From Rhodococcus sp. (in: high G+C Gram-positive bacteria) (GTDB taxonomy: Bacteria; Actinomycetota; Actinomycetes; Mycobacteriales; Mycobacteriaceae), in the NCBI GenBank assembly GCA_039206675.1, contig JBCEBZ010000111.1, forward strand, positions 756 to 64,755: a stretch of DNA of 64,000 nt. The letters run 5' to 3'. Under the pieces are notes generated by a model. That model worked only from the letters and a program-made list of their open reading frames with translations. It was not told the DNA's origin and searched no databases. Each line of letters opens with the position of its first letter. The first letter of the stretch is position 1. The position numbers and the translations under genes were made by a program. This document shows positions 2,874 to 56,628 of the stretch, one piece after another.

Positions 2874-2924
2874 CGTCGGCGGTAGGCGGCGAAAGAGCGC
2901 GGAAGGCTCGCGCTCTCGGGGAAG

Positions 2925-6114: not shown

Positions 6115-39930
<33,816 letters not shown>

Positions 39931-39939
39931 TCTCCGAGC

Positions 39940-39978
39940 GACCGTGGTGGGGAGGGTCCTCGCCTTCCCACCACGGTC
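39940..39978. terminator. Strong GC-rich hairpin between the convergent NRPS and sigma-factor genes (candidate bidirectional terminator)
   Basis: 39940-39955 (GACCGTGGTGGGGAGG) pairs with 39963-39978 (CCTTCCCACCACGGTC): 16 bp with one G-U and a 7-nt loop. It lies 10 nt after the NRPS stop and 5 nt before the sigma stop. There is no U-tract, which is common in actinobacteria. Confidence 0.6.
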
Positions 39979-39982
39979 CGCC

Positions 39983-40918
39983 TCAGCGGCTCACCGCCGT
40001 TTCCCTCTCGACCCGCGACAGTTTCTCGGGGTTGCGCACGATGTAGAGCCCGGTGATCAGGCCGTCGTCGATCCGTACGGCCACGACGTCGTCGATCTCC
40101 CCGTCGAGTCGGACGATCAGCGCGGGGGAGCCGTTCATCTGCACGGGTTCGACCGACACCTCGCCGCCGATCCGGGGCAGGCCGGCCGCCAGCAGACGTC
40201 CGACCTTGTCGGCCCCGACGATGGGTCGCAGCACGGCCTGCTTGACTCCGCCGCCGTCACCGAGGAGGACGACGTCCGGTGCGAGCTGATCGAGCAGGCT
40301 CTGCAGGTCGCCTGTCTCGAGCGCCCGTGTGAACGCGTCGAGCGCATTCCGGGACTCGGCCGGAGTGACGGCGCCCCGCGGCCGGCGCGCCGCGACGTGG
40401 GCCCGGGCCCGGTGCGCGATCTGACGGACGGCGTCGGTGCTCTTGTCGACGGCGGCCGCGATCTCCCCGTACTCCAGATCGAACACCTCACGCAGCACGA
40501 ACACCGCCCGCTCGGTCGGTGCGAGCGTCTCGAGCACCAGCATCATCGCCATCGAGACGCTGTCGGCCAACTCGACGTCCTCGGCCACGTCGGGCGCGGT
40601 CAGCAACGGTTCGGGTAGCCAGGGGCCGACATAGGACTCCCTGCGCCTGCCGAGCGTGCGCAGCCGGACCAGGGCCTGGCGGGTGGTGATCCGGACCAGG
40701 TACGCCCGCTGATTCCGCACCGTGCCCAGATCGACGCCCGCCCACCGCAGCCACGTCTCCTGGAGGACGTCCTCCGCGTCGGCGGCCGAGCCGAGCATCT
40801 CGTAGGCGACGGTGAACAGCAGATTGCGGTGGGTGACGAAGGCGTCGGTGGCGGGATCGGAACGGGCATCACCGGTTCCGCTGCGATCGCCGGGAGTGGT
40901 CTGCGACGTGCCTGCCAT
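39983..40918 (-). CDS. ECF sigma factor, group ECF41 (SigJ-like) with a fused SnoaL-like C-terminal regulatory domain
   Basis: Sigma-2/sigma-4 regions are present (LLFTVAYEMLGSAADAEDVLQETWLRW; ERAVFVLREVFDLEYGEIAAAVDKSTDAVRQIAHRAR). A ~100-aa extension carries the two ECF41 hallmark motifs as I recall them (DGGGxK: LGDGGGVKQ; NPDKL-like: NPEKL). The preferred start is the ATG at 40918, 7 nt after AGGAG. The ORF-track start at 40984 adds 22 implausible residues. Confidence 0.85.
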   Translation of the reverse strand: MAGTSQTTPGDRSGTGDARSDPATDAFVTHRNLLFTVAYEMLGSAADAEDVLQETWLRWAGVDLGTVRNQRAYLVRITTRQALVRLRTLGRRRESYVGPWLPEPLLTAPDVAEDVELADSVSMAMMLVLETLAPTERAVFVLREVFDLEYGEIAAAVDKSTDAVRQIAHRARAHVAARRPRGAVTPAESRNALDAFTRALETGDLQSLLDQLAPDVVLLGDGGGVKQAVLRPIVGADKVGRLLAAGLPRIGGEVSVEPVQMNGSPALIVRLDGEIDDVVAVRIDDGLITGLYIVRNPEKLSRVERETAVSR

Positions 40919-40956
40919 GGGTGGCTCCTGTTCGTTCTCGACGGTGTCACACACCA

Positions 40957-40983
40957 GACACCGCGACCCGCTGTTTTGTGACA
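40957..40983 (-). promoter_or_regulatory. ECF41-type promoter candidate upstream of the sigma gene (TGTCACA-N16-TGTC on the minus strand)
   Basis: The plus-strand TGTGACA at 40977-40983 reads TGTCACA on the minus strand. Sixteen nt downstream on that strand lies TGTC (40957-40960). The ECF41 consensus as I recall it is TGTCACA-N16-CGTC. The start codon is about 40 nt further on. Confidence 0.4.
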
Positions 40984-41006
40984 ACTGACAACCGGACGGG
41001 AGCGAC

Positions 41007-41033
41007 TGTCACAGAAATCGGGCGGCCGGCATC
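41007..41033 (+). promoter_or_regulatory. ECF41-type promoter candidate upstream of the CMD gene (TGTCACA-N16-CATC)
   Basis: TGTCACA at 41007-41013, a 16-nt spacer, then CATC at 41030-41033. The CMD start codon is at 41082, preceded by GAGGA. Confidence 0.45.
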
Positions 41034-41081
41034 TCATGTTCGTTCAGTGCAGCACACGACACCACGAGTGAGGACGAAGTC

Positions 41082-41567
41082 ATGGACGCTCGATTCAATC
41101 TGTTCGCCAACGAGATCGCCCTGAAGTTCGGCAAGCGGTTCGCCAACGCCGCCCAGGCAATCGACCAGTCGCCGCTGCCGAGGACTACCCGGACACTGGT
41201 CGAGATCCGGGCCAGCCAGATCAACGGCTGCGGCTTCTGTACCGACATGCACACGAAGGATGCCGCGGCCGCCGGCGAAACCCCGGTGCGGCTCAACCTG
41301 GTCGCCGCCTGGCGCGAGGCCACCGTGTTCACCGAGGCGGAGCGGGCGGCGCTCGCTCTCGCCGAGGAGGGAACCCGGCTCGCCGACGCTCACCACGGCG
41401 TTTCCGAGGACACCTGGGACCAGGTGCGGGGGCACTACGACGACGACCAGATCGCCGCCCTGGTCTGCCTGGTCGCCCTGATCAACGCCGCCAACCGGAT
41501 CAACGTGATCGTGCGCAACCCGGCGGGAACCTACGAGCCCGGCATGTTCGCGAGCATGACGAGCTGA
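41082..41567 (+). CDS. Carboxymuconolactone decarboxylase-family (AhpD-like) protein
   Basis: 161 aa with the AhpD/CMD CxxC-type motif in context (RASQINGCGFCTDMHTKDA) and the usual helical repeat. CMD genes are the classic conserved neighbours of ECF41 sigma factors. Confidence 0.85.
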   Translation: MDARFNLFANEIALKFGKRFANAAQAIDQSPLPRTTRTLVEIRASQINGCGFCTDMHTKDAAAAGETPVRLNLVAAWREATVFTEAERAALALAEEGTRLADAHHGVSEDTWDQVRGHYDDDQIAALVCLVALINAANRINVIVRNPAGTYEPGMFASMTS

Positions 41568-41577
41568 CCGGAAGGGG

Positions 41578-41595
41578 TCGTGGGCGAGCCCACGA
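41578..41595. terminator. Short GC hairpin between the convergent CMD and N-oxygenase genes
   Basis: TCGTGGG-cgag-CCCACGA: a 7-bp stem and a 4-nt loop, located between stop codons at 41565-41567 and 41616-41618. Confidence 0.3.
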
Positions 41596-41615
41596 GAGCC
41601 GACTTCCCCGCGGAG

Positions 41616-42575
41616 TCAGGCCCACTCGTACGACATCTCGCCCGCGACCCCGAGGTGCTTGCACAGTTTGTGGATGCCCCCGAAATCCTGGACCAGCGCG
41701 GATCGGCGGGTGTCGTGTTCGGCGTCGTCGATCATCGCCTGACCGCCGTCCAAGTCCAGGATGTCGACGATGGTGCGCCAGGTCGAGTAGTCGTTGCTGC
41801 TGAATGCGGTCATCGCGTCGACGAGCCCGTCGAGGAAGAGCCGCCGGTCGCCGGGGTCGAGGGTGTCGTAGACGACGCCCGCGATGTCGTCGGCGATCGA
41901 GGCGTGACAGTACTCGTCGCGATTGTGCAGCCGGACCGTCGCCCGATTGACCGGCTGGATGGCGTCGTTCTCCGAGATCAGGTCGAGGTAGGAGCTGATC
42001 GAGATCTCCGCCACCGTCATGAAGGCGAACGTCGTGATCGCCCGCTGCCTCGGGTCGGCGGCGTCGGCCGTCGCCGCGCGTTGGCGGCGCAACGTCAGGA
42101 CGTCGGGAAGGGCGTTATTCGGCATCGCCCAACCGCGTTTGCGGCGCGTGACCGCGCTCGCGTTCAGGTGCATGAGGGTGTGGTACTGCTCGTCCACCAT
42201 CGCCTGGTGGACGGCCACCGCGAACGTGTCTCCGAGCCCGGTGTCCAGGGCGTCGTGCGCGACGAGGTCGAATCCGGGATTGACCACGTACTGCTCGATG
42301 TCCATCACGTTCTTGTTGAACGCGATCCAGGCCCACGCCCGCAGCTGGTTCCGTTGCTCCTCGCCCATGCGGAGGAACCGGTCGTGATCGGCGAACGGCA
42401 GCAACTCGTTCGGGTAGTCCTGCTTGCCGAGGTCGAACAGCGCGTCGAGGTCCGGTTCCGGCTTCTTCACGGTCGCCCGCTGCCCCCAGTTGCGGGCGAG
42501 CCGCGTCACGACGGCACTCTCCACCGGATCGGACGGGTCGTATTCCGGGAGCGAGGGAATGTTCTGGGTCGTCAT
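41616..42575 (-). CDS. AurF/CmlI-family diiron arylamine N-oxygenase
   Basis: 319 aa from the ATG at 42575 (GGAG 7-10 nt upstream; this ATG overlaps the papC stop as ATGA). The ligand pattern is E94, E129-x-x-H132 (DEQYH), E190, and H217-x3-E221-x2-H224 (HNRDEYCH). It mirrors AurF E101/E136/H139/E196/H223/E227/H230 with a constant 6-7 residue offset. The ORF-track N-terminal 155 aa is an Arg/Pro-rich out-of-frame overlap with papC. Confidence 0.85.
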   Translation of the reverse strand: MTTQNIPSLPEYDPSDPVESAVVTRLARNWGQRATVKKPEPDLDALFDLGKQDYPNELLPFADHDRFLRMGEEQRNQLRAWAWIAFNKNVMDIEQYVVNPGFDLVAHDALDTGLGDTFAVAVHQAMVDEQYHTLMHLNASAVTRRKRGWAMPNNALPDVLTLRRQRAATADAADPRQRAITTFAFMTVAEISISSYLDLISENDAIQPVNRATVRLHNRDEYCHASIADDIAGVVYDTLDPGDRRLFLDGLVDAMTAFSSNDYSTWRTIVDILDLDGGQAMIDDAEHDTRRSALVQDFGGIHKLCKHLGVAGEMSYEWA

Positions 42576-43492
42576 GACGCATCTCCGTTCCGCGGCTGTC
42601 GGTGAACGAGATCGGTGAAGAGGTCGGCGCACAGACGGGCGAGGGGTTCGTGCCGGTCGCCGAGAGGGGACGTCGCGCGGGACATGAGCGCGGCGAAATC
42701 GTCCTCCGAGCCGTGCTCGACGGTGTCGGCGAGAGTGGCGAGCGCGGCGGCGAGCGCGCGGCGGGCGTCGCCGGCGTAGGGATTGCCGGCCTGGATGTCC
42801 CGGTAGACCTCGGGGACGCCGCCGCCGACCCGTGCGAGGAGGGCGAGCGAGACGAGATGCGGAGGGGTGCCCACCGCGGTGAGTTCGGCGCCGTCGACAC
42901 CGAGTTCCGCGAGGGCGAGACCGAAGGCGAGGACGCCGGCGTGTGTCAGTGCCTGGGTCGCAGCCGTGAGCCGGTCGTGGTGTTCGGCGTCCAGGCGAAC
43001 CACCGAGGATCCCCAGCCGGACAGCGTCGAGAGGAACCATTCGACCCCGCCGCCGTCCCGGTAGGTCACGGCCGCGACGGGACGGCCCTCCGGTCCGAGG
43101 GACGGCGCGAACATCGGGTTGATGCCCACCGCGCCGCCCCGCAGTGCGCTCTCCCGCAGGGCCGCATCGAACCGGGACTTCACGGACAGCGTGTCGACCA
43201 GCAGTGCGTGGTCGCGCAACCCTGCGACGACGAACGGAATCGACTCCAGCGCGACGCTTTCCGGTATCGCCAGGATCACCACGTCGGCGGCCTGCACCAC
43301 CGCGCGCAGCTCCGGCGACGGGTCGGTGACGTCGCCCTTCATCTGATCGGCGTCGGACCGGTCGGTGAATCGGATGTCGATGGTGCGCACCGTGTTTCCG
43401 TCGGAGCGGAGCCGGGTGGCGAGCATCCGGCCGACATCGCCCGAACCGCCGATCAGTGCGACGGTCCGGGTGGACGCGGCCGGGACGTTCAC
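42572..43492 (-). CDS. papC: Prephenate-dehydrogenase-family enzyme (PapC-like 4-amino-4-deoxyprephenate dehydrogenase)
   Basis: 306 aa from the GTG at 43492, which overlaps the papA stop as GTGA. N-terminal Rossmann motif VALIGGSGDVG. TyrA-like INPMFAPSLG and DAEHHDRLTAATQALTHA. Its position in a papB-papA-papC operon supports the call. Confidence 0.8.
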   Translation of the reverse strand: MNVPAASTRTVALIGGSGDVGRMLATRLRSDGNTVRTIDIRFTDRSDADQMKGDVTDPSPELRAVVQAADVVILAIPESVALESIPFVVAGLRDHALLVDTLSVKSRFDAALRESALRGGAVGINPMFAPSLGPEGRPVAAVTYRDGGGVEWFLSTLSGWGSSVVRLDAEHHDRLTAATQALTHAGVLAFGLALAELGVDGAELTAVGTPPHLVSLALLARVGGGVPEVYRDIQAGNPYAGDARRALAAALATLADTVEHGSEDDFAALMSRATSPLGDRHEPLARLCADLFTDLVHRQPRNGDAS

Positions 43493-45561
43493 TGCCCGAT
43501 CTCGTTCGGCCGGTCGGCCGTCACCGACAGCGCCCGCAACATGGTGGCCGCCTTGACCATTGCCTCGTCGAACTCCTCCTCCGGGTCCGACAGCGCAGTG
43601 ATCGCACCGCCGATGCCGAACGTCACCTCGCTGTCGGTGGCGACGATCGTGCGGATGACGATGGACAGGTCGGCCGTCCCCGTGAGGGAGAAGTACCCGA
43701 TCGAACCGGAATACACCCCGCGCGGGCCGGACTCGAGCCGGTCGATGATCTCCATGGTCCGGATCTTCGGGGCGCCCGTCATCGATCCGCCGGGGAAGGC
43801 GGCACGGACGCACTCGACGACGGAGGCGTCGGCGCTGAGGGTTCCGCGCACGGTCGACACGAGTTGATGCACGGCGGCGTACGTTTCGACGTCGAACAGC
43901 TTCGGAACGTGCACCGAGCCGGGAACGCACACCCGGGCCAGATCGTTTCGCGTCAGATCGACGATCATCAGGTTCTCGGCGCGATCCTTTTCGCTGTCGA
44001 GCAGATCCTGCCGCAGCGCCGCATCCTTCGCGGGGGTGGCGCCGCGCGGACGGGTCCCCTTGATGGGTTTGGACTCCACCACCCGGTCCGCGCCGATCCT
44101 CAGGAACCGTTCGGGGGAGGCGCTGAGAACGGACAGCCCGGCGAACTGCAGGTACGCGCTGTACGGGGTGGGGCTGATGGAGCGCAGCAGTTCGAACGTG
44201 TGCAGGGGATCGATCGACTGGTCCACGGTCGCCATGTTGGTCAGGCACACCTCGTAGGACTCGCCGGTCCGGATCTCGCCGAGCGACGACGCGATGTGGT
44301 CGAGGTACTTGTCGTGGTCGTGGCGCAGAGCCAGTTCGGCGGATTCCGGCTTCCGGATCGGCGGCACCGCGGTCGGCGGCTGATCCGGTTCGGCCAGCCG
44401 GTGCAGCGCCGCCTCCATCTCGTCGAGCCAGCGGCGCAATTCCGGATCGTCCGGGTGGTCGCTCAGGCACAGCGCGTAGGTGCGCTCGTTCGAATGGTCG
44501 ATGACCACGGCGCGGTCCGCGAACACCAGTGCGGCGTCCGGGGTGGGCGACTTGTGTGCGGCCGCTCCGCCGGTTTCGGCCTTCAGTTCGTAGCCGAGGT
44601 AGCCCACGTAGCCGAGGCCGAACGGCACACCCGGCAGCCCGGGCACGGACCGTGCCTGCAGTTGCCGTTCGAGGTAGTCGAAGAACGGTGCGTGCACCTG
44701 TTCGACCGGCAATCCCTCGCGCGTGATCCGGACGATCGCTTCGCTGACGTCGTACGTGATGTACTCGGCGCGAGGACCGGAACAGTTGCCCATGATCGTG
44801 AAACGCGAAGTCGGCTCGGACGCCGACGTCCCGTCGAGCCAGAACGCGTTGGGACCGGACGCGAACAGATCCTCGAACGTGGTGCGGGGGTCGACCTCGT
44901 GGTCGACGCGCACCTGCTGGACCACGTACGGCGCGTGGGGGATCGGGATTCTGAGCAGGGAGCCGTGTGTGGGTGTCCCGGAATGCGTCTGCGTGAGGTC
45001 GCGGAAGTTCGCGAGCAGTTCGTGGCCGAAGGCGGTGCTGATCGATTCGGGGTGGAACTGGACGCCCCACAGCGGGCGAGTGCGGTGCCGCACGCCCATC
45101 AGGAGTCCGTCGGCCGTCCAGGCGGTGGCCTCGAGATCGTCGGGGAGATCCTCGACGATCAGCGAGTGGTAGCGGACCGTCGGGAACGGTGACGGAATGC
45201 CGGCGAAGAGTTCGGAACCGTCGTGGTCGACGAGGGACACGCGGCCGTGCATCGGTTCGGGCGCGAGCACCACCTTGCCCCCGAACAGCTGGCACAGCCC
45301 CTGGTGGCCGAGGCAGACGCCGAGCACGGGGAGTTCGGTCTCCCGGATGATGCGCGCACTGATCCCGAAGTCGCGTTTCCGGTCCGGCCTGCCGGGGCCG
45401 GGGGAGATGACGATGTTGTCGAAGTCGGACCAGGGGATCGAACCCCATTCCACATCGTTGTGCACGACCGTGGGCGGTTCGCCGTTCACCTCGGCGAGCA
45501 GGGTGAACAGGTTGTAGGTGAAGGAGTCGTAATTGTCGACCAGCAGCGTCCGGGTACTCAT
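43489..45561 (-). CDS. papA: Fused PabA-PabB-type 4-amino-4-deoxychorismate synthase (PapA-like)
   Basis: 690 aa from the ATG at 45561. The N-terminal class-I glutamine amidotransferase has LLVDNYDSFTYNL and the GVCLGHQ catalytic Cys. The C-terminal chorismate-binding domain has SPERFL, PIKGTRPRG and GSMTGAPK. Confidence 0.9.
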   Translation of the reverse strand: MSTRTLLVDNYDSFTYNLFTLLAEVNGEPPTVVHNDVEWGSIPWSDFDNIVISPGPGRPDRKRDFGISARIIRETELPVLGVCLGHQGLCQLFGGKVVLAPEPMHGRVSLVDHDGSELFAGIPSPFPTVRYHSLIVEDLPDDLEATAWTADGLLMGVRHRTRPLWGVQFHPESISTAFGHELLANFRDLTQTHSGTPTHGSLLRIPIPHAPYVVQQVRVDHEVDPRTTFEDLFASGPNAFWLDGTSASEPTSRFTIMGNCSGPRAEYITYDVSEAIVRITREGLPVEQVHAPFFDYLERQLQARSVPGLPGVPFGLGYVGYLGYELKAETGGAAAHKSPTPDAALVFADRAVVIDHSNERTYALCLSDHPDDPELRRWLDEMEAALHRLAEPDQPPTAVPPIRKPESAELALRHDHDKYLDHIASSLGEIRTGESYEVCLTNMATVDQSIDPLHTFELLRSISPTPYSAYLQFAGLSVLSASPERFLRIGADRVVESKPIKGTRPRGATPAKDAALRQDLLDSEKDRAENLMIVDLTRNDLARVCVPGSVHVPKLFDVETYAAVHQLVSTVRGTLSADASVVECVRAAFPGGSMTGAPKIRTMEIIDRLESGPRGVYSGSIGYFSLTGTADLSIVIRTIVATDSEVTFGIGGAITALSDPEEEFDEAMVKAATMLRALSVTADRPNEIGQ

Positions 45562-46025
45562 CACGACTCGACATTCGCAGACGGCACGGAACCGTGCCGA
45601 ACCTGGTGGTTGCCGGCGTGGCTGTGGCTGCCGTGGTGGTTGCCGTTGTGGCGAGGGCCCTCGTCGGCGGCCTCCGCGTTGATCACGAGGTCCTCGAGCC
45701 GGCACGTCTCGGCGATGAGGAGGTCGTAGAGCGAATCGAAGAACTCGGGGGAGAGGGAATGGCTGTCGGCGTACTGACGCGCCCGTTCGTGGACGATGTG
45801 GATCCGGCCCGGCTGCATCATGGCGATGTGCTCGCGCCGCTTCAGTTCACCGATCCGCAGGCACACTTCCAAACGCTGCCGGACCGTTTCGAGCAGGGTC
45901 GCGTCGACGGCGTCGAGTTCCGCGCGCAGACCCTCGAGTGCGTGCTGCGCCGAGGCGTCAGAATGCTCTCCGGAATCGTCGCCGTTCCGCTGTTCTACGG
46001 AGAAGTACATAGTCGCCCCACTCAC
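45561..46025 (-). CDS. papB: AroQ-type chorismate-mutase-like protein (PapB-like 4-amino-4-deoxychorismate mutase) with a His-rich C-terminal tail
   Basis: CM_2 signature LRAELDAVDATLLETVRQRLEVCLRIGELKR..............ERARQYA. The stop TGA shares one nt with the papA ATG (TGATG). The start is either the GTG at 46025 or the ATG at 46010 (MYFSV). The C-terminal ~38 aa contain 7 His. Confidence 0.75.
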   Translation of the reverse strand: MSGATMYFSVEQRNGDDSGEHSDASAQHALEGLRAELDAVDATLLETVRQRLEVCLRIGELKRREHIAMMQPGRIHIVHERARQYADSHSLSPEFFDSLYDLLIAETCRLEDLVINAEAADEGPRHNGNHHGSHSHAGNHQVRHGSVPSANVES

Positions 46026-46241
46026 TCGATCGGCAGTAGCTTTCTCATCCCGACTATCGTGTGTCGTTGGTGGTTCGTTTCCACGAGCCTTCCGGATGGC
46101 CGGGAGTGCCGTGGTCGATCGGCCGAAAAACGAACCAGGTGGGTTATCACCCCCGGAGTCTCGATCTCAGGTTGAGACTTTGGTGGACGGTTGGCTAACG
46201 TAACCTGAAGTCTATTTCCGCAAACTCAGGATACGAGGAAT

Positions 46242-47177
46242 ATGCGTATATCGTCGGCCACTAGGGCTCTGTTGTGTGCGCTGGCAGGCATCGTGATGCT
46301 GTGCAGTGCGGCACCGGCGGCAGCGGATCCCGTGGAAGCGGAACCCGCGCCCGTGGTCGATCCGTCCGCGCTGCCCGGGGCGAACGACTGGAGCTGTACG
46401 CCGTCCGCGGCGCATCCACGTCCCGTCGTGCTGGTGCACGGCACCTGGACCGGCATGGTGGGGACGTGGAAGGACCTCGCTCCGGCGCTGAGCGCGGAGG
46501 GCTACTGCGTCTTCGCCCTCAACTACGGGCAGGCCGCCGGTCTGACCAAGGGCAACATGATGCGCATGTTCGGCGGCGCCGACATCGAGGAGTCCGCTCG
46601 GCAGCTCGCCGGGTTCGTCGAGCTGGTCCGCACGGCCACAGGTGCTCCGCAGGTCGACATGATCGGGCATTCGCTCGGCGGCACGGTATCCCGCCAGTAC
46701 CTGCGATTCGAAGGTGGCGCCGACCGGGCGAATCCCGCGCTGAACAAGGTGCACTCGCTGGTCACGCTCGGCGCCACCAACCACGGCACCAGCTTCGGGG
46801 ACGTCCAGTCGCTCGGCGCGATCGCGCAGGCACTGGGTGTGCCGGTCACGACGCTCGCCGGTGTCGCGGTCGGGCCGTCGTACATCCAGCAGATGGTGGG
46901 CTCGCCCTTCCTGCAGCTCCTCAACGCGGCAGGCGACACCGATCCGGGCATCGACTACACGGTGGTCGCCAGTCGCAGCGACACCGTGTCGACCCCGCCG
47001 GAGAATACGTTCCTGACGGCCGGCCCGTGGGCGACCGTGCACAACATCTGGCTTCAGGACGGCTGCGACACCAACACCGCGGAACACGACCAGCTGACGA
47101 CCGACCCGCGGGCCGTGTACATCATCCAGCGGGCACTGGACCCCGCCTACGGAGACCGCAATCCCGCGCCGTGCTGA
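46242..47177 (+). CDS. Secreted alpha/beta-hydrolase lipase/esterase (lipase class 2-like)
   Basis: Signal peptide MRISSATRALLCALAGIVMLCSAAPAAA-DP. PVVLVHGTW oxyanion region. Nucleophile elbow GHSLGG. AGGAA-type RBS before the ATG. Confidence 0.7.
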   Translation: MRISSATRALLCALAGIVMLCSAAPAAADPVEAEPAPVVDPSALPGANDWSCTPSAAHPRPVVLVHGTWTGMVGTWKDLAPALSAEGYCVFALNYGQAAGLTKGNMMRMFGGADIEESARQLAGFVELVRTATGAPQVDMIGHSLGGTVSRQYLRFEGGADRANPALNKVHSLVTLGATNHGTSFGDVQSLGAIAQALGVPVTTLAGVAVGPSYIQQMVGSPFLQLLNAAGDTDPGIDYTVVASRSDTVSTPPENTFLTAGPWATVHNIWLQDGCDTNTAEHDQLTTDPRAVYIIQRALDPAYGDRNPAPC

Positions 47178-47947: not shown

Positions 47948-49090
47948 TTACAAGCCGTAGGTCTTGCCGATGATGTCTCGCTGAATCTCGTTGGTACCGC
48001 CGTAGATGCTCGAGACGATGGTGGAGCGGACGTGCTTCTCCATGTCGAACTCGGTGGCGTAGCCGTACCCGCCCATCATCTGCATGCCCTCGAGCGCGAC
48101 CTTCTTCGCCGTCTCCGTGACCTTCAGCTTGGCCATCGAGGCTTCGCGGGCCAGCATCTTGCCGGGGTTCGCGTCGACGTCCCTGGCGACGCTGTACACG
48201 AGCAGTTTGCAGCACTCGATCTCCGTCGCGAGATCGGCGATCCGGTGGCGCAGCGCCTGGAACGATCCGACGGGGCGCCCGAACTGCTTGCGCTGGGTGA
48301 CGAAATCGAGGGTGTCGGCGAACGCGCGCTGCGCGGTGCCGAGCATCATGGCGGCGAGGATCAGGCGCTCGAAGTTCAGTCCGGTCATCAGTTGGCGCCA
48401 GCCGTTGCCGACCTCGCCCACCACTGCGTCCTCGGGGAGGACGCAGTCGGTGAAGTAGAGATCGTTGACCTCCTTGCCGCCCATCGTGTCGATGCCGCTG
48501 ATCTTCAGTCCGGCGGTACCCGCGGGAACGTGGAACATCGTGAGGCCTTCGTGCTTGCCGTCGCCGCGCCCGGTGCGGGCCACGAGCAGGATGTTGTCGG
48601 CGAAGTGGGCGTTGGAGCACCACGTCTTCTGGCCGTTGATCACCCAGCCGTCGGCGGTCTTCTCCGCGCGGGTGCTGAGGTTGCCGACGTCGGAACCGGC
48701 CTCCGGCTCGGACATCGAGATGGACTGCGACCGGCCTGCCACGATGCCGCGTAGCACGACGTCCTTCTGCGCGTCGGTTCCGAACTTCGCGTAGGCGCCG
48801 CCCGTGATCAGGGTGGGCCCGATCCCGCCGATGGGTGCCATCCCCTTGGCGGCTTCCTCGAGCAGGATGCACATGTCGACGTGGCTCGCGGCGGAGCCGT
48901 CGTATTCCTCGGGGATGGTGATGCCCAGCCAGCCCAGCTTCGCCATCTTCTCGTAGAGGTCCTGATTGTGGTTGTGCTCGCCGTGATTCGTCAGCCTGTC
49001 CCGTTGCTCGCGGGTGCCGCTCTCGCGCTTGCAGAAATCGGCGATCGCCGCCGCGAAGTCCTTCTGTTCACTGGTGAATTCGACGCTCAT
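47948..49090 (-). CDS. Acyl-CoA dehydrogenase
   Basis: 380 aa with MSEPEAGSD, GQKTWCSN and a C-terminal GGYGYATEFDMEKHVRSTIVSSIYGGTNEIQ. GAGGAG RBS upstream of the ATG at 49090. Confidence 0.9.
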   Translation of the reverse strand: MSVEFTSEQKDFAAAIADFCKRESGTREQRDRLTNHGEHNHNQDLYEKMAKLGWLGITIPEEYDGSAASHVDMCILLEEAAKGMAPIGGIGPTLITGGAYAKFGTDAQKDVVLRGIVAGRSQSISMSEPEAGSDVGNLSTRAEKTADGWVINGQKTWCSNAHFADNILLVARTGRGDGKHEGLTMFHVPAGTAGLKISGIDTMGGKEVNDLYFTDCVLPEDAVVGEVGNGWRQLMTGLNFERLILAAMMLGTAQRAFADTLDFVTQRKQFGRPVGSFQALRHRIADLATEIECCKLLVYSVARDVDANPGKMLAREASMAKLKVTETAKKVALEGMQMMGGYGYATEFDMEKHVRSTIVSSIYGGTNEIQRDIIGKTYGL

Positions 49091-49201
49091 GTCCGGGGAA
49101 CTCCTCGTGGGTGATTCCGGCAGGCGAAGGGCCGGCCGGGGTGACTGTGTGGGGCTTGCCGCGATGGGGTGGGCCGCATACTGTGATGTCCACTACATTA
49201 C

Positions 49202-49227
49202 ATCACATCACATATATTTGATGTGAT
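49202..49227. promoter_or_regulatory. Perfect 9-bp inverted repeat ATCACATCA-N8-TGATGTGAT (candidate GntR operator overlapping a TATATT -10-like box)
   Basis: Arms at 49202-49210 and 49219-49227 with spacer CATATATT. A related GTGATGT lies at 49183-49189. This is the most AT-rich spot of the divergent acyl-CoA dehydrogenase / aldehyde dehydrogenase intergenic region (49091-49247). Confidence 0.5.
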
Positions 49228-49247
49228 CTCGAGGGAGGACATCGACC

Positions 49248-50780
49248 ATGCCCCAGCAGGCGGAGACGACCGAACCGACGGCAGGCGCGCAGCCCGCGGC
49301 CCCGACGGAGCCGGCGCCGAAGACGTTCGCGTCCCTGGACCCGCGCGACGGCACCGTGCTGGCCGAGTACCCGGTCCAGGGGGAGCGGGAGGTGCGCGCC
49401 GCCGTCGACGCGGCCCGGTCGGCCGCGCAGTGGTGGAACGCTCTCGGCTTCGACGGCCGCAAGCAGTGGCTCCTCGACTGGAAGAAGTCGGTGGCCCGGG
49501 ACGGCGAGCAGCTCGCCGCCCTCGTCGCCGCCGAGACCGGCAAGCCGTACGACGACGCGCTCCTCGAGGTGATGCTCGCCATCGAGCATCTCGACTGGGC
49601 CGCGAAGAACGCGGGCAAGGTCCTGAAGCGGCGCAAGGTGCCCTCCGGTCTGGTCAGTGCGAACCAGGCCGGCAGCGTCGGGTACGAGCCGATGGGTGTG
49701 GTCGGTGTGATCGGGCCGTGGAACTATCCCGTCTACACGCCGATGGGCTCCATCTCCTATGCGCTCGCCGCGGGCAACACCGTCGTCTTCAAGCCCAGCG
49801 AACTGACCCCCGGGGTCGCGGTGTGGCTCGCCGAGAAGTGGACGGCGCTCATTCCCAATCAGCCTGTCCTGCAGGTGGTCACCGGCGACGGATCGACGGG
49901 TTCCGCGCTCGTGTCCGCCGGTGTCGACAAGATCGCCTTCACCGGGTCCGCCGCCACCGGCAAGCGTGTCATGGCCGCCTGCGCCGACACACTCACGCCG
50001 CTGGTCGTCGAGGCGGGAGGCAAGGACGCCATGCTCGTCGACGCCGACGCGAATCTGGACGAGGCGGCCGGTTTCGCCGTGTTCGGGGCGATGGGCAACG
50101 CCGGACAGACGTGCGCGGGCGTCGAGCGCATCTACGTCGTCGACTCCGTCTACGACGAGTTCGTCCGACTGGTCGCGGAGAAGTCGAAGGTCCTGCGCCC
50201 GGGACCGCGGGACGCGGCGTACGGCCCCATGACGATGGCCGGCCAGTCCGACGTGGTCCGCAGGCACGTCCAGGACGCGCTCGACAAGGGCGGATCCGCG
50301 GTGGTCGGCGGACTCGAGTCCATCGCGGACGGGTACGTCGGGCCGATCGTGCTGACCGGCGTTCCCGAGGACAGCACCGCGATCCGCGAGGAAACGTTCG
50401 GCCCCACCGTGGTCGTCAACAAGGTCGCGAGCCTCGACGAGGCGGTCGCGAAGGCCAACGGCACCACGTTCGGTCTCGGCGCGTCCATCTTCACCAAGGA
50501 CGCGACCAGGGCGATGCAGGCTGCCGAGAAGCTGAGGGCCGGCGTCGTGACGATCGGCTCGGTGCTCGGATTCGCCGGTGTCGCGGCGTTGCCGTTCGGC
50601 GGTGTCGGAGACTCGGGCTTCGGCCGCATTCACGGAGCGGACGGGCTGCGGGAATTCAGCCGGGTCAAGTCCATCACCCGCCAGAAGTTCGCGGCGCCAC
50701 TGAATCTGCTGACCATGCAGCGCAAGTCGCGGGACATGAAGATTTCCGCCTGGATGTTGAAGAACCGGCACGGACGCTGA
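49248..50780 (+). CDS. NAD(P)-dependent aldehyde dehydrogenase
   Basis: 510 aa. ALDH signatures are FKPSELTP, the catalytic-Cys region GNAGQTCAGVERIYV, and EETFGP. GGGAGG RBS before the ATG. Confidence 0.9.
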   Translation: MPQQAETTEPTAGAQPAAPTEPAPKTFASLDPRDGTVLAEYPVQGEREVRAAVDAARSAAQWWNALGFDGRKQWLLDWKKSVARDGEQLAALVAAETGKPYDDALLEVMLAIEHLDWAAKNAGKVLKRRKVPSGLVSANQAGSVGYEPMGVVGVIGPWNYPVYTPMGSISYALAAGNTVVFKPSELTPGVAVWLAEKWTALIPNQPVLQVVTGDGSTGSALVSAGVDKIAFTGSAATGKRVMAACADTLTPLVVEAGGKDAMLVDADANLDEAAGFAVFGAMGNAGQTCAGVERIYVVDSVYDEFVRLVAEKSKVLRPGPRDAAYGPMTMAGQSDVVRRHVQDALDKGGSAVVGGLESIADGYVGPIVLTGVPEDSTAIREETFGPTVVVNKVASLDEAVAKANGTTFGLGASIFTKDATRAMQAAEKLRAGVVTIGSVLGFAGVAALPFGGVGDSGFGRIHGADGLREFSRVKSITRQKFAAPLNLLTMQRKSRDMKISAWMLKNRHGR

Positions 50781-50797
50781 TCACGGGAGGGCATTAC

Positions 50798-51730
50798 ATG
50801 CTGACGAAGACCACGCGCACCGGCACCGCTGCGCCGGGTGGGGTTCCGCGGGGCAGGCACGGCTGGCGGCGCCGGATCGAGGAACTCGACCCGGTCCGGG
50901 ACCACCAGGAAATCCACCGCATCACGGCAGGCTACGAATTTCCGTGGGACTACCAGCGGTCGCTCGAGTTCGCGTTGTTCCGAACGTATTGCGTCCCCAC
51001 GATTTCGGAACTGCTGCAGCGCACCGGTGAGTTCGAGCGGCGGCCGCAGAAGCGATACGACGACACCGCGCTGCTGATGGCCGAACTCGTCGAACACGGC
51101 TACGACTCCGAACGCGGCATCGAGTCGCTGCGCGTCGTGAACCGCATGCACGGCAAGTACGACATCGACAACGACGACATGCTGTACGTGCTGACCACCT
51201 TCATCTACGAGCCGATCGACTGGATCGACCGCTTCGGGTGGCGGCGGCTCACCCCGAACGAGCGGCTCGCGTGCTTCCATTTCTACCGTCAGGTGGGGGT
51301 TCGCATGGGGATTCGGAACATCCCCGAGACGTTCGAGGACTTCTACCGGTCCAAGACCGAGTACGAGCGGACACACTTCCGGTACACCGACGACAACCAT
51401 CGGGTCGGCACCTACACGCTGACGCTGTTCTGTTCCTGGTTTCCGGCGCCACTCCGGCCTCTCGTCGCGCACGGGGTCTACGCCCTACTCGACCCGATGA
51501 TGCTGGCGGCGTTCGGATTCCCCGCGGCCCCGCCCTGGTTGCAGAACGCGTCCCGCCGTGCGCTGCGGGTCCGGGCGCGGTTCGTGCGCGTCCTGCCGCC
51601 GCGCCGCGAGTCGAAGGCCGCTCGGGATCCGCGCAACCGCACCTACCCCGGATACCCGGTGGGCTACCGCCCACGGGACCTGGGAGCGGACAACGACCGT
51701 CAGCGCAGGGGTCGTCGCCACGCAGCCTGA
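50798..51730 (+). CDS. MpaB-family oxygenase (DUF2236-type)
   Basis: 310 aa from the ATG at 50798 (GGGAGGG RBS), 18 nt after the ALDH stop. Recognised from the pattern YEFPWDYQRSLEFALFRTYCVPTISELLQRTGEF...RYDDTALLM...VNRMH. This family assignment is from memory. Confidence 0.55.
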   Translation: MLTKTTRTGTAAPGGVPRGRHGWRRRIEELDPVRDHQEIHRITAGYEFPWDYQRSLEFALFRTYCVPTISELLQRTGEFERRPQKRYDDTALLMAELVEHGYDSERGIESLRVVNRMHGKYDIDNDDMLYVLTTFIYEPIDWIDRFGWRRLTPNERLACFHFYRQVGVRMGIRNIPETFEDFYRSKTEYERTHFRYTDDNHRVGTYTLTLFCSWFPAPLRPLVAHGVYALLDPMMLAAFGFPAAPPWLQNASRRALRVRARFVRVLPPRRESKAARDPRNRTYPGYPVGYRPRDLGADNDRQRRGRRHAA

Positions 51731-51738
51731 TGTTTCCG

Positions 51739-51765
51739 TGCCCCCGGGCGGACCGTCCGGGGGCA
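51739..51765. terminator. GC-rich hairpin between the convergent MpaB-family and TetR genes
   Basis: TGCCCCCGG (51739-51747) pairs with CCGGGGGCA (51757-51765). The 9-bp perfect stem can extend inward by 2-3 pairs. It lies between stops at 51728-51730 and 51775-51777. Confidence 0.5.
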
Positions 51766-51774
51766 GGCACGGGC

Positions 51775-53052
51775 TCAGTGCCCCAGGAGCACGGCCGTCA
51801 TCAGGGTGTGGAGGCGGGCGCGCGACTCCTCGCGGGTGTCGAAGTGGACCAGTCGGCCGATGTCGAGCACCAGTCCCAGTGCCGCGTGCACCAGGAACCG
51901 TGCCTCCGGCGCCGAGAGCTCGGTCCGCACGGCGGTCACCAGGTGGACCCATTCCTCGACGTGCAGGCGCTGCACGTTACGGAGATTCGTCCGCTCGTTC
52001 TTCGGGAGGTTCCCGATCTCCGCGAAGTAGACCGACAGCACTTCCGGGTTCCCGAACGACAGTTCCAGGTACGACTCGGCGAGCTTGCGGAGGGCGTCCT
52101 CGGGGTCGGTGGCGGTGGACAGCGCCGCCGACGTGGCCACGGCCAGACGGTCGGACGCGCGGTAGAACACCGCCGCCAGAAGGTCTGCCTTGCTGGGGAA
52201 GTGGCGGTACACGCTCGACGCGTTGATGCCGGCGGCGGCGCCGATCTCCTCGATGCTCGAATCGTGGTAGCCGTGCCGGTCGAAGATCTTGACGGCCTCG
52301 TTGATCAGCAATTCGCGCTTGGACGTCACGGCCAGTCCCCGCACCGGGCCGGCGCCGCCCCTGCCCGCGTTCGGGACGGCGGGCGGAAGTGTCGCGTTCA
52401 GGACCGACCCGCACGCCGACTTCAGGAGTGTGTCGAGTCTGCGGGTGGCGAGGGTGGTCCGGTGTGCGCTGATGCTGCCCAGCACGCTCAGTGTCGACGC
52501 CCCCAGCGTCGTCGCGTCGACGGCGGTGAGTTCGGGGCGAATCTCGCGCAGCGGCGCGGCCACGCACTGGGTGACGTGGACGAAGACGGCACGAATCCGC
52601 TTGCGGTCCTCGGCCTCGAGGTACCGGCCCTCCCAGCGGTAGAGCCCGGCGACCTTGCGGTTCTCGATGCTGTTGGCGACGAGCGCGGCGATCAGGTGTT
52701 CGAGGCGGTCGCCGGGGTCGAGTTCGGCGACCCCGCCGAGTGCGCCGTCCGCGGTTGCCTGGAGCGCGTCGGCCGTCGTCGTCGCCGCGTGGACGAGCAG
52801 GGCGTACTTGTTGGGATAGTGCCGGTACAGGGCGGGGCCGGAAATGCCGATGGTGGCGGCGATTTCGTCGACACCGACCGCGTGGTAGCCGCGCTCGCTG
52901 AAGGCTTCGGCTGCGACGTTCGCGATCTGGGCCTTGCGATTCTTGGGGCGGCGGCGGATCGGCCGGTCGGTGGCGGCACCGGCCGCCGTGCTGGTCCGGG
53001 CCACGGTCACCTCCAGTAGTGGCAGTCGCCTGCCGGCTTCTTTGTCAGTCAT
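51775..53052 (-). CDS. Tandem (duplicated) TetR-family regulator, Mce3R-like
   Basis: About 425 aa from the ATG at 53052. It has two complete TetR HTH units in one chain (IANVAAEAFSERGYHAVGVDEIAATIGISGPALYRHYPNKYAL and LINEAVKIFDRHGYHDSSIEEIGAAAGINASSVYRHFPSKADL). It is divergent from an echA-fadD-yrbE-mce operon, as Mce3R is in M. tuberculosis. The exact start is uncertain. Confidence 0.8.
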   Translation of the reverse strand: MTDKEAGRRLPLLEVTVARTSTAAGAATDRPIRRRPKNRKAQIANVAAEAFSERGYHAVGVDEIAATIGISGPALYRHYPNKYALLVHAATTTADALQATADGALGGVAELDPGDRLEHLIAALVANSIENRKVAGLYRWEGRYLEAEDRKRIRAVFVHVTQCVAAPLREIRPELTAVDATTLGASTLSVLGSISAHRTTLATRRLDTLLKSACGSVLNATLPPAVPNAGRGGAGPVRGLAVTSKRELLINEAVKIFDRHGYHDSSIEEIGAAAGINASSVYRHFPSKADLLAAVFYRASDRLAVATSAALSTATDPEDALRKLAESYLELSFGNPEVLSVYFAEIGNLPKNERTNLRNVQRLHVEEWVHLVTAVRTELSAPEARFLVHAALGLVLDIGRLVHFDTREESRARLHTLMTAVLLGH

Positions 53053-53166
53053 CTTAACCGAGACTCCCGCGCCGAAGACCCTCGGATGGTCCTCGTGCGC
53101 CGGAGTGTTCCCCCGGCGTCTCGATGAACTGCCAGCAAGACAGTGCGAAATGTGTTCCGGGAGGTA

Positions 53167-53196
53167 TTGACACGCATGGAACGTGGCCAATAAGTT
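53167..53196 (+). promoter_or_regulatory. SigA-like promoter candidate TTGACA-N18-TAAGTT for the echA-fadD-mce operon, with -10 overlapped by a GTTAAC motif
   Basis: TTGACA at 53167-53172 and TAAGTT at 53191-53196. GTTAAC at 53194-53199 belongs to the repeated motif described in the findings. Confidence 0.4.
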
Positions 53197-53287
53197 AACA
53201 GAAATTCGCGTTCGGCTGATGGTGTCTTCCATCGCCTCGACCCATCCCCGGCCTCGCCGGTCGATTCCCTCGGAGGTAGCTGGCTTC

Positions 53288-54106
53288 ATGAGTTCACCAC
53301 GGCAACCGTCGACCACCCCCACCGTCGCAGCAGACGGTCTGCGAGTGGTGGTGGACGGCGGGATCCTCCGGATCACGATCGACCGGCAAGACCGGATGAA
53401 TGCGCTCGATCTGGCTCACATGACCGCACTCGGCGACGTGCTCACCGGCGCCGCGGCGGATCCTGCCGTCCGCGTCGTCGTCCTCTCGGGTGCGGGCGCG
53501 GCATTCTGCACCGGCGCGGATCTCGCCGCGGCGGCCGCCGCGGGCGGCCGGGCGGCGCCGCCGGCGGTGGTGATGGATTCGGCCAACCGCGTGATCCGCG
53601 CGATCGTCGACCTCCCGATCCCGGTGATCGCGCAGGTGCGCGGCGCGGCTGTCGGTGTCGGGGCCTCCATCGCCCTGGCGGCGGACCTGACGTACGCCGC
53701 CGAGGACGCATATCTGCTCCTCGCGTTCGTCAACGTCGGTCTCATGCCCGACGGCGGGTCCAGTGCGTTGATCGCCGCCTCGATCGGCAGGGCGCGGGCC
53801 ACTCGGATGGCGCTGCTCGGCGAACGGCTGCCCGCCGATCGCGCGGCGGGGGAGGGCCTGATCGCCGGTGTGCTCGCGGCCGGCGACCTCGCGGCCCACG
53901 TCGATGCCGTCGCGGCGAGGCTGGCGCGTGGCCCGAGGCGGGCCGTCGCACTGACCAAACAGGCGCTCACGGAGTCCACGCTGACGGAGTTGGACCGGGC
54001 GCTGGGTCGTGAGAAGGCCGGCCAGGCCGAATTGCTCCGGTCTCCGGACTTCGCCGAAGGGGTCACGGCCATGCTCACGAAACGTGCTCCGAACTTCCGG
54101 AGCTGA
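53288..54106 (+). CDS. Enoyl-CoA hydratase/isomerase (crotonase) family protein
   Basis: 272 aa from the ATG at 53288 (GGAGG at 53272-53276). Crotonase hallmarks: ITIDRQDRMNAL, VVVLSGAGAAFCTGADL, FVNVGLMPDGG. The ORF-track start at 53183 adds an unlikely leader. Confidence 0.85.
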   Translation: MSSPRQPSTTPTVAADGLRVVVDGGILRITIDRQDRMNALDLAHMTALGDVLTGAAADPAVRVVVLSGAGAAFCTGADLAAAAAAGGRAAPPAVVMDSANRVIRAIVDLPIPVIAQVRGAAVGVGASIALAADLTYAAEDAYLLLAFVNVGLMPDGGSSALIAASIGRARATRMALLGERLPADRAAGEGLIAGVLAAGDLAAHVDAVAARLARGPRRAVALTKQALTESTLTELDRALGREKAGQAELLRSPDFAEGVTAMLTKRAPNFRS

Positions 54107-54219
54107 TGCGAATTGCGGTTAACAAGACTGTTCCGATCGACGTCGACATCTGTAATACTCGTCACAGCCTCCGTGCGGGGCCCGAGGGGCGAACGCGAGT
54201 ACAGCGAAGGGACCACCAC

Positions 54220-55812: not shown

Positions 55813-55818
55813 CCCAGC

Positions 55819-56628
55819 GTGACATTCCAGCTGCCACCCGCCAAGGGGCCCGTCGGCCATTTCGCCAACGAAGTCGGTGCACTCATCGGGTTCTCGATCG
55901 CGACCACGGTGGCCGCCGTACGAGTTCTGGTGCGGCGCAAACTGGCCTGGCGGGAACTGCTGGACCAGGCCTGGCGGATCGCCTCGGTCACGTCGGCGCC
56001 GGCCCTGCTGCTGATGATCCCCATCGGGGTCCTCATCGCCGTCACGATCGGCAGCCTCGCCGGCCAGCTCGGCGCCGAGGGGTACACGGGTGCGGTCGTC
56101 GGGTTCGTGATCGTCGGGCAGGCGTCCGCGCTGGTCTGTGCGCTGATGCTGGCCGGGGTCGGCGGCTCCGCGATCTGCGCGGACCTCGGCTCGCGCACGA
56201 TCCGCGAAGAAGTCGAGGCCATGGAAGTCCTCGGACTCGATGTGATCGAGCGGCTCGTGGTTCCGCGAGTGCTCGCCGCGGTGCTCGTCGGCGTCGCACT
56301 GTGCGCAATGGTCACCGCCGTCGGAGTGTCGGCGTGCTTCCTCTTCCAGGTGGTCGTCCAGAACAGTTCGGCGGGAAGCTTTCTCGCGGCACTGTCCCAG
56401 TACACGCGGCTGTCGGACTTCGTGGTCGCCCTCGTCAAGTCGATGGCGTTCGCGGTGACGTCGGCGCTCGTCGCCAGTTTCAAGGGCCTGCACGCGAAGG
56501 GGGGACCCAGCGGTGTCGCCGACGCCGTCAACGAGGCCGTGGTGCTGGCCTTCATCCTCGTGTTCATCGTCAACACCGTGCTCAGTCAGCTCTATTCCGT
56601 TCTCGTCGTCCCGGTAGGTGGTTACTGA
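55819..56628 (+). CDS. yrbEA: Mce-system ABC permease YrbEA (MlaE family)
   Basis: 269 aa, polytopic and hydrophobic, with MlaE-type motifs (REEVEAMEVLGLD...). GTG start 7 nt after the fadD stop. Confidence 0.85.
   Translation: MTFQLPPAKGPVGHFANEVGALIGFSIATTVAAVRVLVRRKLAWRELLDQAWRIASVTSAPALLLMIPIGVLIAVTIGSLAGQLGAEGYTGAVVGFVIVGQASALVCALMLAGVGGSAICADLGSRTIREEVEAMEVLGLDVIERLVVPRVLAAVLVGVALCAMVTAVGVSACFLFQVVVQNSSAGSFLAALSQYTRLSDFVVALVKSMAFAVTSALVASFKGLHAKGGPSGVADAVNEAVVLAFILVFIVNTVLSQLYSVLVVPVGGY

Follow-up and report, generated by a model that had tools for sequence, protein, structure and literature searches.

A family of non-ribosomal peptide synthetase (NRPS) loci has been described in Rhodococcus by Undabarrena et al. 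(2021), assigned to the NRPS gene cluster families GCF-1 and GCF-5, whose 'right arm' includes the genes ra7-ra10 (PMC8477407). These encode an AurF-like oxygenase, a TyrA-like dehydrogenase, an aminodeoxychorismate (ADC) synthase and a chorismate mutase, and in subclade 4a they are found beside one large nrps gene (PMC8477407). The orthologs in Rhodococcus sp. H-CA8f share 43-54% amino acid identity with CmlI, CmlC, PabAB and CmlD of Streptomyces venezuelae (43.2% for the oxygenase). Corynecins I-III, which are N-acyl p-nitrophenylserinols, were furthermore found by liquid chromatography-high-resolution mass spectrometry (LC-HRMS) in this cassette-bearing strain, and the cassette was proposed, without genetics, as their source (PMC8477407). 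Later genome papers report an antiSMASH 'corynecin' hit for this region. Here, we consider the corresponding oxygenase gene in a stretch of 64,000 nucleotides of Rhodococcus sp. DNA (contig JBCEBZ010000111.1; hereafter the window), which harbors contiguous chorismate mutase, ADC synthase, prephenate dehydrogenase-like and AurF-like genes next to an NRPS, as in the ra7-ra10 layout. The oxygenase adds an uncharacterised member to an enzyme family already known, and its locus family is likewise described in the literature. It is an intact CmlI/AurF-family enzyme encoded at the end of an operon of the 4-aminophenylalanine (PAPA) pathway and probably oxidises a para-amino group to a nitro group, a step which we place, more tentatively, early in the pathway on a small free molecule.

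A complete seven-ligand diiron site

The oxygenase open reading frame (ORF) begins with an ATG at 42575 and ends with a stop codon at 41616-41618 on the minus strand. A GGAG is located 8 nt 5′ of the ATG, the start overlaps the stop codon of the preceding gene, and the G+C content at third codon positions (GC3 = 0.925) is typical of the 69% G+C window; the oxygenase is therefore a real, native gene. An identical protein is found in NCBI (MEN0134837.1), annotated as 'MAG: diiron oxygenase [Rhodococcus sp.]', and a 90% cluster joins it with the orthologs of R. koreensis, R. opacus and R. jostii RHA1 (ABG97881.1). A promoter and terminator scan of positions 39800-46400 yielded nothing informative.

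Residues 17-309 of the translated product align with positions 2-282 of the 282-position AurF profile, and thus with its full length (PF11583; Bitscore: 170.5, cut-off 29.6; e-value: 5.6e-50). When compared against the PDB with phmmer, the only solved structures matched by the sequence were those of CmlI (5HYG/5HYH; e-value: 2.5e-77) and AurF (3CHH/2JCD; e-value: 1.6e-43). According to a review of the AurF crystal structure, E136 is the bridging ligand, while Fe1 is bound by E101, H139 and H223 and Fe2 by E196, E227 and H230 (PMC11775713; AurF positions are given throughout in the full-length numbering of 3chh). The phmmer alignment pairs E94, E129, H132, E190, H217, E221 and H224 of the oxygenase with AurF E101, E136, H139, E196, H223, E227 and H230, with an offset of 7 residues for the first three ligands and 6 for the last four. 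Six of the ligands, which form the canonical ferritin-like set (E, ExxH, E, ExxH), align with those of both AurF and CmlI, and the seventh, H217, lies four residues before the last glutamate, in line with AurF H223. The original prediction had claimed a complete AurF-type site made up of these residues; their codon coordinates are exact in the ORF translation, and the AurF-like spacing, shifted by six to seven residues, is reproduced by the alignment. Given the e-values obtained with PF11583 and the CmlI structures, the match to the seven-ligand site is far beyond chance.

In an alignment of 80 homologs sharing 50-94% amino acid identity with the oxygenase all seven ligands are invariant, as are D128 of the DEQYH string, a second-sphere residue and the counterpart of AurF D135, and R219 and D220 beside the ligands. 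The completeness of the site that had been predicted is thus upheld both by the alignment to AurF and CmlI and by this invariance. In an AlphaFold2 model built from the same alignment (mean pLDDT 89.3) the ligands are carried by four long helices (residues 72-106, 115-147, 175-201 and 208-238). The comparison of such a model with AurF and CmlI, which had been set beforehand as a check, gave Foldseek TM scores of 0.87 and 0.94, respectively, while the next-best ferritin-like proteins in the PDB, the ribonucleotide reductase subunit R2 and R2lox, reached only 0.41-0.49. By sequence and predicted fold the oxygenase belongs, over its full length, to the ferritin-like diiron N-oxygenases of the AurF/CmlI family and, from the residue equivalence with two crystal structures and the global fold match, we infer that the seven residues converge on a dimetal site. 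There appears to be no sign of inactivation, since the ligands and second-sphere residues are invariant, the codon usage is native and the gene is translationally coupled to papC, and as such catalytic competence can reasonably be inferred. A complete site is also what the existing NCBI annotation as a diiron oxygenase implies.

The same seven ligands are found in Dob3 of Nocardia ninae (Nature 2026), a ferritin-like diiron enzyme that oxidises hydrazones to diazo groups, and the seventh histidine is considered there to mark diiron N-oxidising enzymes in general (PMC13061610). A Nocardia protein sharing 53% amino acid identity with the oxygenase (P0079) has its ligands at E101, E137, H140, E198, H225, E229 and H232, which is the published Dob3 numbering, and carries the strings DEQYH and HNRDEYCH, as does the oxygenase; by sequence, this protein is taken as the Dob3 ortholog. 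It is the diiron oxidase of a dob-like cluster for a diazo metabolite in Nocardia sp. NPDC051321 (L006, positions 1-12207), together with a hydrazine synthetase of the cupin-methionyl-tRNA synthetase (MetRS)-like type, an AMP-ligase, a carrier protein, an acetyltransferase, a type I polyketide synthase (PKS) and a major facilitator superfamily (MFS) transporter. As Dob3 has the same ligands and P0079 the same motif strings, the seventh histidine is not arylamine-specific, and the seven-ligand site marks a diiron N-oxidising enzyme rather than arylamine-to-nitro chemistry specifically. The suggestion that the third histidine sets arylamine N-oxygenases apart is contradicted by this hydrazone-to-diazo oxidase. 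The predicted N-oxygenase function therefore stands in part: a diiron N-oxidising enzyme is retained, while the metal site, shared with a 53%-identical Dob3 ortholog with identical motifs, does not single out arylamines. An arylamine substrate is argued by the pap genes and not by the metal site.

The clade that is sister to the Rhodococcus oxygenases is functionally heterogeneous. Besides the Dob3-like proteins, Streptomyces homologs sharing 56-57% amino acid identity with the oxygenase adjoin genes for ADC synthase and a type II PKS. In S. lincolnensis (L005) and S. chartreusis (L007) the homolog is located between genes for 3-deoxy-D-arabino-heptulosonate 7-phosphate (DAHP) synthase and ADC synthase, with neighbors encoding the ketosynthase alpha/beta pair, acyl carrier protein and MaoC dehydratases of the type II PKS, while a class IV aminotransferase (ADC lyase-like) gene is additionally present in S. 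lincolnensis alone. These two loci may represent an uncharacterised pathway for a nitrobenzoate-primed polyketide.

Table 1. Features of the window discussed in the text (positions are those of the 64,000-nucleotide stretch).
Feature	Position	Strand	Description
N-oxygenase gene	41616..42575	minus	319 aa + stop; AurF/CmlI ferritin-like diiron family; ORF translation
E94 codon	42296-42294	minus	AurF E101, Fe1 ligand
DEQYH codons, D128-H132	42194-42180	minus	E129 corresponds to bridging AurF E136; H132 to AurF H139
E190 codon	42008-42006	minus	AurF E196, Fe2 ligand
HNRDEYCH codons, H217-H224	41927-41904	minus	H217 corresponds to AurF H223 (seventh ligand), E221 to E227, H224 to H230
papC/cmlC-like 4-amino-4-deoxyprephenate dehydrogenase, 306 aa	42572..43492	minus	Pfam PDH_N + PDH_C
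papA/pabAB-like fused ADC synthase, 690 aa	43489..45561	minus	GATase + chorismate-binding domains (Pfam)
papB/cmlD-like, chorismate mutase family, 149-154 aa	45561..46025	minus	Start 46010 or 46025; Pfam CM_2, e-value: 4.2e-16
NRPS, single ORF, 11,271 aa, nine modules	6115..39930	plus	Convergent with pap operon; motif map, Pfam on termini
Sigma-70 family gene	39983-41008	minus	Pfam; between NRPS and oxygenase
CMD family (AhpD-like) gene	41082-41567	plus	Pfam; between NRPS and oxygenase
Secreted lipase / alpha-beta hydrolase	46242..47177	plus	Pfam Lipase_2; divergent from papB

The pap operon and the papC-oxygenase pair

The oxygenase gene is the last of a four-gene operon on the minus strand, papB-papA-papC-oxygenase (Table 1), in which all three junctions overlap: the papB stop codon shares one base with the papA ATG (TGATG), the papC GTG start overlaps the papA stop codon (GTGA) and the oxygenase ATG in turn overlaps the TGA with which papC ends (ATGA). 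As such, the operon is translationally coupled. The papA product scores above the cut-off of the NCBIfam pabB model (TIGR00553; Bitscore: 363.6, cut-off 328.4) and the papB product above that of the chorismate mutase-like model TIGR01803 (Bitscore: 80.7, cut-off 73.35), while all NCBIfam prephenate dehydrogenase models stay under their cut-off with the papC product. A supply of p-aminobenzoate (PABA) through ADC synthase and ADC lyase was considered and rejected, as the operon includes chorismate mutase-like and prephenate dehydrogenase-like genes but no lyase gene.

To determine the distribution of the locus, species-representative genomes were scanned, yielding 80 loci, 66 in Rhodococcus/Prescottella and 14 in Streptomyces, Nocardia or other genera, and these loci were compared with proteins of the window by tblastn. 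A papC-like gene is located directly upstream of the oxygenase gene in all 66 of the Rhodococcus/Prescottella loci, while papC is present in none of the 14 others. The full papB-papA-papC set is found in 36/66 loci. The papC-oxygenase pairing also holds in loci that lack papA and papB and in those with a different neighboring NRPS; NRPS domains are encoded within 10 kb of the oxygenase gene in 57/66 loci, and the NRPSs differ between clades in size and gene number. In the thirty loci of a clade of the R. fascians type, only DUF4442-papC-oxygenase is found, beside the S10 ribosomal operon. The gene order in these loci (L021-L050; for example L034, positions 8532-10939) is S10 operon, DUF4442, papC-like gene, oxygenase, ABC transporter, GT2 glycosyltransferase, lipase and NRPS.

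Proposed pathway, timing and the neighboring NRPS

In the proposed pathway PapA, PapB and PapC would convert chorismate to 4-aminophenylpyruvate, which a general aminotransferase would turn into 4-aminophenylalanine. Electrons would reach the oxygenase from a non-dedicated donor. In its diferrous state the enzyme would bind O2 as a diferric-peroxo species, as is known for the family, and would convert a para-amino group in steps to a nitro group, in the manner of AurF and CmlI; the gene context points to a substrate derived from 4-aminophenylpyruvate or 4-aminophenylalanine. The resulting p-nitrophenyl building block may then be used by the neighboring NRPS or for corynecin-type p-nitrophenylserinol amides. 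A nitro product is favored because corynecins have been detected in cassette-bearing Rhodococcus (PMC8477407). As regards timing, we lean, with some hesitation, towards an oxygenase that acts on a small free molecule, either the PapC product or free 4-aminophenylalanine, since the papC-oxygenase pair is invariant while its surroundings vary. Such an early step, in the manner proposed for ObaC (PMC5490192), is slightly favored, a CmlI-like late step is nearly as likely, and there is least support for an oxygenase that acts on a carrier-bound residue or on the finished peptide.

Several observations weigh against this proposal. The early timing is drawn from gene order only, and the closest characterised relative by identity is the Dob3 ortholog (53%), Dob3 not being an arylamine oxygenase. 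The thirty loci of the R. fascians type retain papC and the oxygenase, while papA and papB are both absent within 10 kb, and genes for the arylamine supply are thus not found nearby in every case. For none of the nine adenylation (A) domain codes of the neighboring NRPS is an assignment to 4-amino- or 4-nitrophenylalanine possible, and in a search of the NRPS flanks of the 80 loci for a shared aromatic-type A domain, in which ~10 kb of each NRPS was visible, the terminal A domain codes differ by clade. The corynecin route is also incomplete in the window, as neither a CmlP-like A-T-reductase (T, thiolation) nor a CmlA-like β-hydroxylase is found among its annotated genes, and the NRPS ends in a condensation-family domain.

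The closeness to the Dob3 ortholog bears on whether a nitro group is formed at all. The oxygenase might stop at the hydroxylamine or nitroso stage, as does AzoC, a family member which is described as stopping at nitroso and which leads to azoxy products (PMC6783550), or it might oxidise another nitrogen function in the manner of Dob3. The Dob3 ortholog, with its identical seven-ligand site and DEQYH and HNRDEYCH strings, is closer to the oxygenase than CmlI (43%) or AurF (32%), and the R. fascians clade is without local papA and papB. Dob3, however, is encoded beside hydrazine- and hydrazone-forming genes, a type I PKS and an MFS transporter, none of which are in the window, where neither hydrazine- or hydrazone-forming genes, such as the cupin-MetRS-like synthetase, nor a PKS could be identified among the annotated genes. 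Furthermore, no pap genes adjoin Dob3, whereas a direct coupling of the oxygenase to papC is seen in all Rhodococcus loci, and nitro-containing corynecins are known from Rhodococcus. An enzyme that does not form nitroarenes is consequently considered improbable.

If the nitro product is retained, the oxygenase may nevertheless act late, converting a finished N-acyl-D-threo-p-aminophenylserinol to a corynecin, just as the amino precursor of chloramphenicol is oxidised by CmlI. Among solved structures it is CmlI that matches best, in both sequence (e-value: 2.5e-77) and fold (TM 0.94), and the detection of corynecins in cassette-bearing Rhodococcus (PMC8477407) would likewise fit a late step. 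This link is correlative only, resting on LC-HRMS co-occurrence in one strain, and no cmlP, cmlA or acyl-transfer genes are present in the window or in the inspected flanks. The positions of AurF Y93 and R96, the pair that holds the PABA carboxylate, are occupied in the alignment by F86 and N89 in the oxygenase and by Y and N in CmlI, a resemblance to CmlI rather than to AurF. N89 is, however, nearly invariant over the whole 80-homolog alignment, Dob3-like sequences included, and therefore does not discriminate between substrates. As CmlI is moreover only 43% identical and branches outside the Rhodococcus clade, late oxidation is regarded as somewhat unlikely.

Oxidation could also take place during or after peptide assembly by the NRPS, which is encoded as a single ORF convergent with the pap operon (Table 1). 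Its nine modules, with condensation (C), A, T and epimerisation (E) domains, are laid out as C-A-T-E, six C-A-T, C-A-T-E and C-A-T followed by a terminal C/E-like domain, such that the protein starts with a condensation domain, modules 1 and 8 are each followed by an epimerisation domain, and the protein ends in a condensation/epimerase-like domain (motif HHLVIDS, ~38923) with no thioesterase or reductase. The A domain codes of modules 1 and 5 (DVWSLALVHK) and 7 (DLWHLILVSK) are identical to those of Ala-loading domains of the rhodamide synthetase (compared with PMC11586506), those of modules 2 and 4 (DALFVGG(V/I)MK) are Leu/Ile-like and resemble the Leu/Ile code of that synthetase, and that of module 9 (DAWQFGLINK) is Gln-like. 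No substrate could be assigned to the codes of modules 3 (DQKNLGNVTK), 6 (DTGVVGAVIK) and 8 (DAFFSALIWK); for those of modules 3 and 6 no published match could be found, and a full-text literature search for codes gave nothing useful. The module 3 A domain (16261 onward) has an unusually polar code (Q236, K239, N278, N322, T331) and an A10 motif NLKIDR, while the glycines at 239 and 301 of the module 6 code suggest a deep hydrophobic pocket. Two stretches of ~100 amino acids (15412-15720 and 22216-22521, plus strand), resembling duplicated N-terminal A domain fragments, are located in modules 3 and 5, in each case between the C and the A domain, with two AMP-binding stretches per linker in Pfam, and may be scars of module recombination. 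The stop codon of the NRPS gene is directly followed by an inverted repeat rich in G+C (CCGTGGTGGGGAGGG...CCCACCACGG; 39931-39975), which likely forms a transcription-terminator hairpin without a T tract. The NRPS of the erythropolis clade was considered as the rhodamide synthetase and is not equated with it, because its last A domain code (DIWHFAWVVK in L003) differs from that of RmdD_A14 (DLWHLIVVSK).

The oxygenase could thus be pictured as acting on a 4-aminophenylalanyl residue on an NRPS carrier or in the nonapeptide, and the unassigned codes of modules 3, 6 and 8, the NRPS domains within 10 kb in 57/66 loci and the convergent position of NRPS and oxygenase only 74 bp apart in the opacus clade would all be compatible with this. 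The neighboring NRPSs, however, vary in size, gene number and terminal A domain codes while papC and the oxygenase are constant, and the 319-residue protein consists of a single AurF domain with no apparent docking or carrier-binding extension. CmlI/AurF-clade enzymes are not known to act on a carrier-bound aryl amine, and such on-line or post-assembly oxidation is considered improbable. Early oxidation of a free molecule would itself be compatible with the NRPS as a possible consumer of the pap/oxygenase product. A more speculative extension, to which we attach little confidence, is that the papC-oxygenase pair supplies a p-nitrophenyl or N-oxidised aminophenyl unit to a clade-variable lipopeptide NRPS, with module 6 or 3 carrying a new code for p-nitro- or p-aminophenylalanine. 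Were this the case, the nonapeptide of the opacus/jostii clade would be the first nitroaryl-containing NRPS lipopeptide of its kind; Rhodococcus peptides with amino- or nitrophenylalanine were not found in literature searches.

The genes of the sigma-70 and carboxymuconolactone decarboxylase (CMD) families between the NRPS and the oxygenase occupy positions 39976-41607. By blastn synteny, this pair is absent from the orthologous loci of R. opacus, R. jostii and R. wratislaviensis, and these genes are therefore probably not part of the pathway. In R. koreensis and one other genome the sigma gene occurs without the CMD gene, and in R. opacus (L001) the stop codons of the NRPS and oxygenase genes are only ~74 bp apart. 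The lipase gene divergent from papB recurs beside the cassette in other clades and corresponds to 'ra1' (PMC8477407). The left flank from 3-4874 encodes the C-terminus of a methylcrotonyl-CoA carboxylase alpha subunit, an acyl-CoA dehydrogenase, an HpcH-type lyase and an acetoacetyl-CoA synthetase-like ligase, while the right flank (47948-63908) encodes an acyl-CoA dehydrogenase, an aldehyde dehydrogenase, a double TetR, an enoyl-CoA hydratase, an acyl-CoA ligase and an Mce (MlaE/MlaD) transport operon. Both flanks look like primary or lipid metabolism outside the cluster.

Comparison with known systems

Nitro-forming enzymes are few and are wanted as biocatalysts, and an intact oxygenase in genomes of the R. 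jostii/opacus type, beside an orphan NRPS of 11,271 amino acids, represents a reasonable target for assays, the natural product of which might explain the nitro group of the Rhodococcus corynecins. The E/ExxH/E/HxxxExxH signature is diagnostic of a diiron enzyme that oxidises nitrogen but is no longer predictive of arylamine-to-nitro chemistry, since diazo groups are made by a relative with 53% identity and the same motifs, and function has to be sought in the neighboring genes, in this case papC. Of greater interest as leads are the orphan NRPS and the pairing of papC with the oxygenase throughout the genus.

The window shares with the right arm of Undabarrena et al. the four-gene cassette ra7-ra10 and matches the arrangement of subclade 4a, but is without the glycosyltransferase, ABC transporter and esterase genes of that arm. 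That study combined comparative genomics with LC-HRMS dereplication in a strain of the erythropolis clade, and neither the active site of the oxygenase nor genetics or enzymology was part of it. The obafluorin pathway of Pseudomonas fluorescens resembles the Rhodococcus locus in that genes of the PAPA pathway are encoded alongside the oxygenase ObaC, which is proposed to oxidise 4-aminophenylpyruvate to 4-nitrophenylpyruvate before incorporation and which shares 25% and 19% amino acid identity with AurF and CmlI, respectively (PMC5490192). ObaC is absent among the best 120 of the 371 homologs of the Rhodococcus oxygenase.

By alignment the oxygenase shares 43% amino acid identity with CmlI and 32% with AurF, and is an ortholog of neither. 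AurF, the 4-aminobenzoate N-oxygenase of Streptomyces thioluteus, is alike in ligand spacing (35/3/57/27/4/3, against 35/3/58/27/4/3 in the oxygenase) and in fold (TM 0.87), but belongs to a PABA pathway, whereas the Rhodococcus enzyme is encoded with the mutase and dehydrogenase of a PAPA pathway. An assignment to AurF proper was rejected by the NCBIfam model NF045603, against which the oxygenase scores 173 bits with a cut-off of 620 bits. In a rough neighbor-joining distance tree, rooted on AurF and without support values, CmlI is basal, followed by a clade of Streptomyces and Nocardia sequences and a monophyletic Rhodococcus/Prescottella clade which follows taxonomy. Orthology to CmlI was likewise rejected, given the 43% identity and this tree, in which CmlI is included neither in the Rhodococcus clade nor in its Streptomyces/Nocardia sister. 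CmlI, the arylamine oxygenase of chloramphenicol biosynthesis in S. venezuelae, nevertheless resembles the oxygenase in fold (TM 0.94), in its seven ligands, which align without gaps, and in the asparagine at the position of AurF R96, and genes of the papA, papB and papC type occur in both pathways. The CmlP A-T-reductase, CmlA hydroxylase and halogenation genes of the chloramphenicol route are missing from the window, and while cmlI of S. venezuelae (SVEN_0924) is located five genes from cmlC (SVEN_0919; PMC8477407), the Rhodococcus oxygenase gene is translationally coupled to papC.

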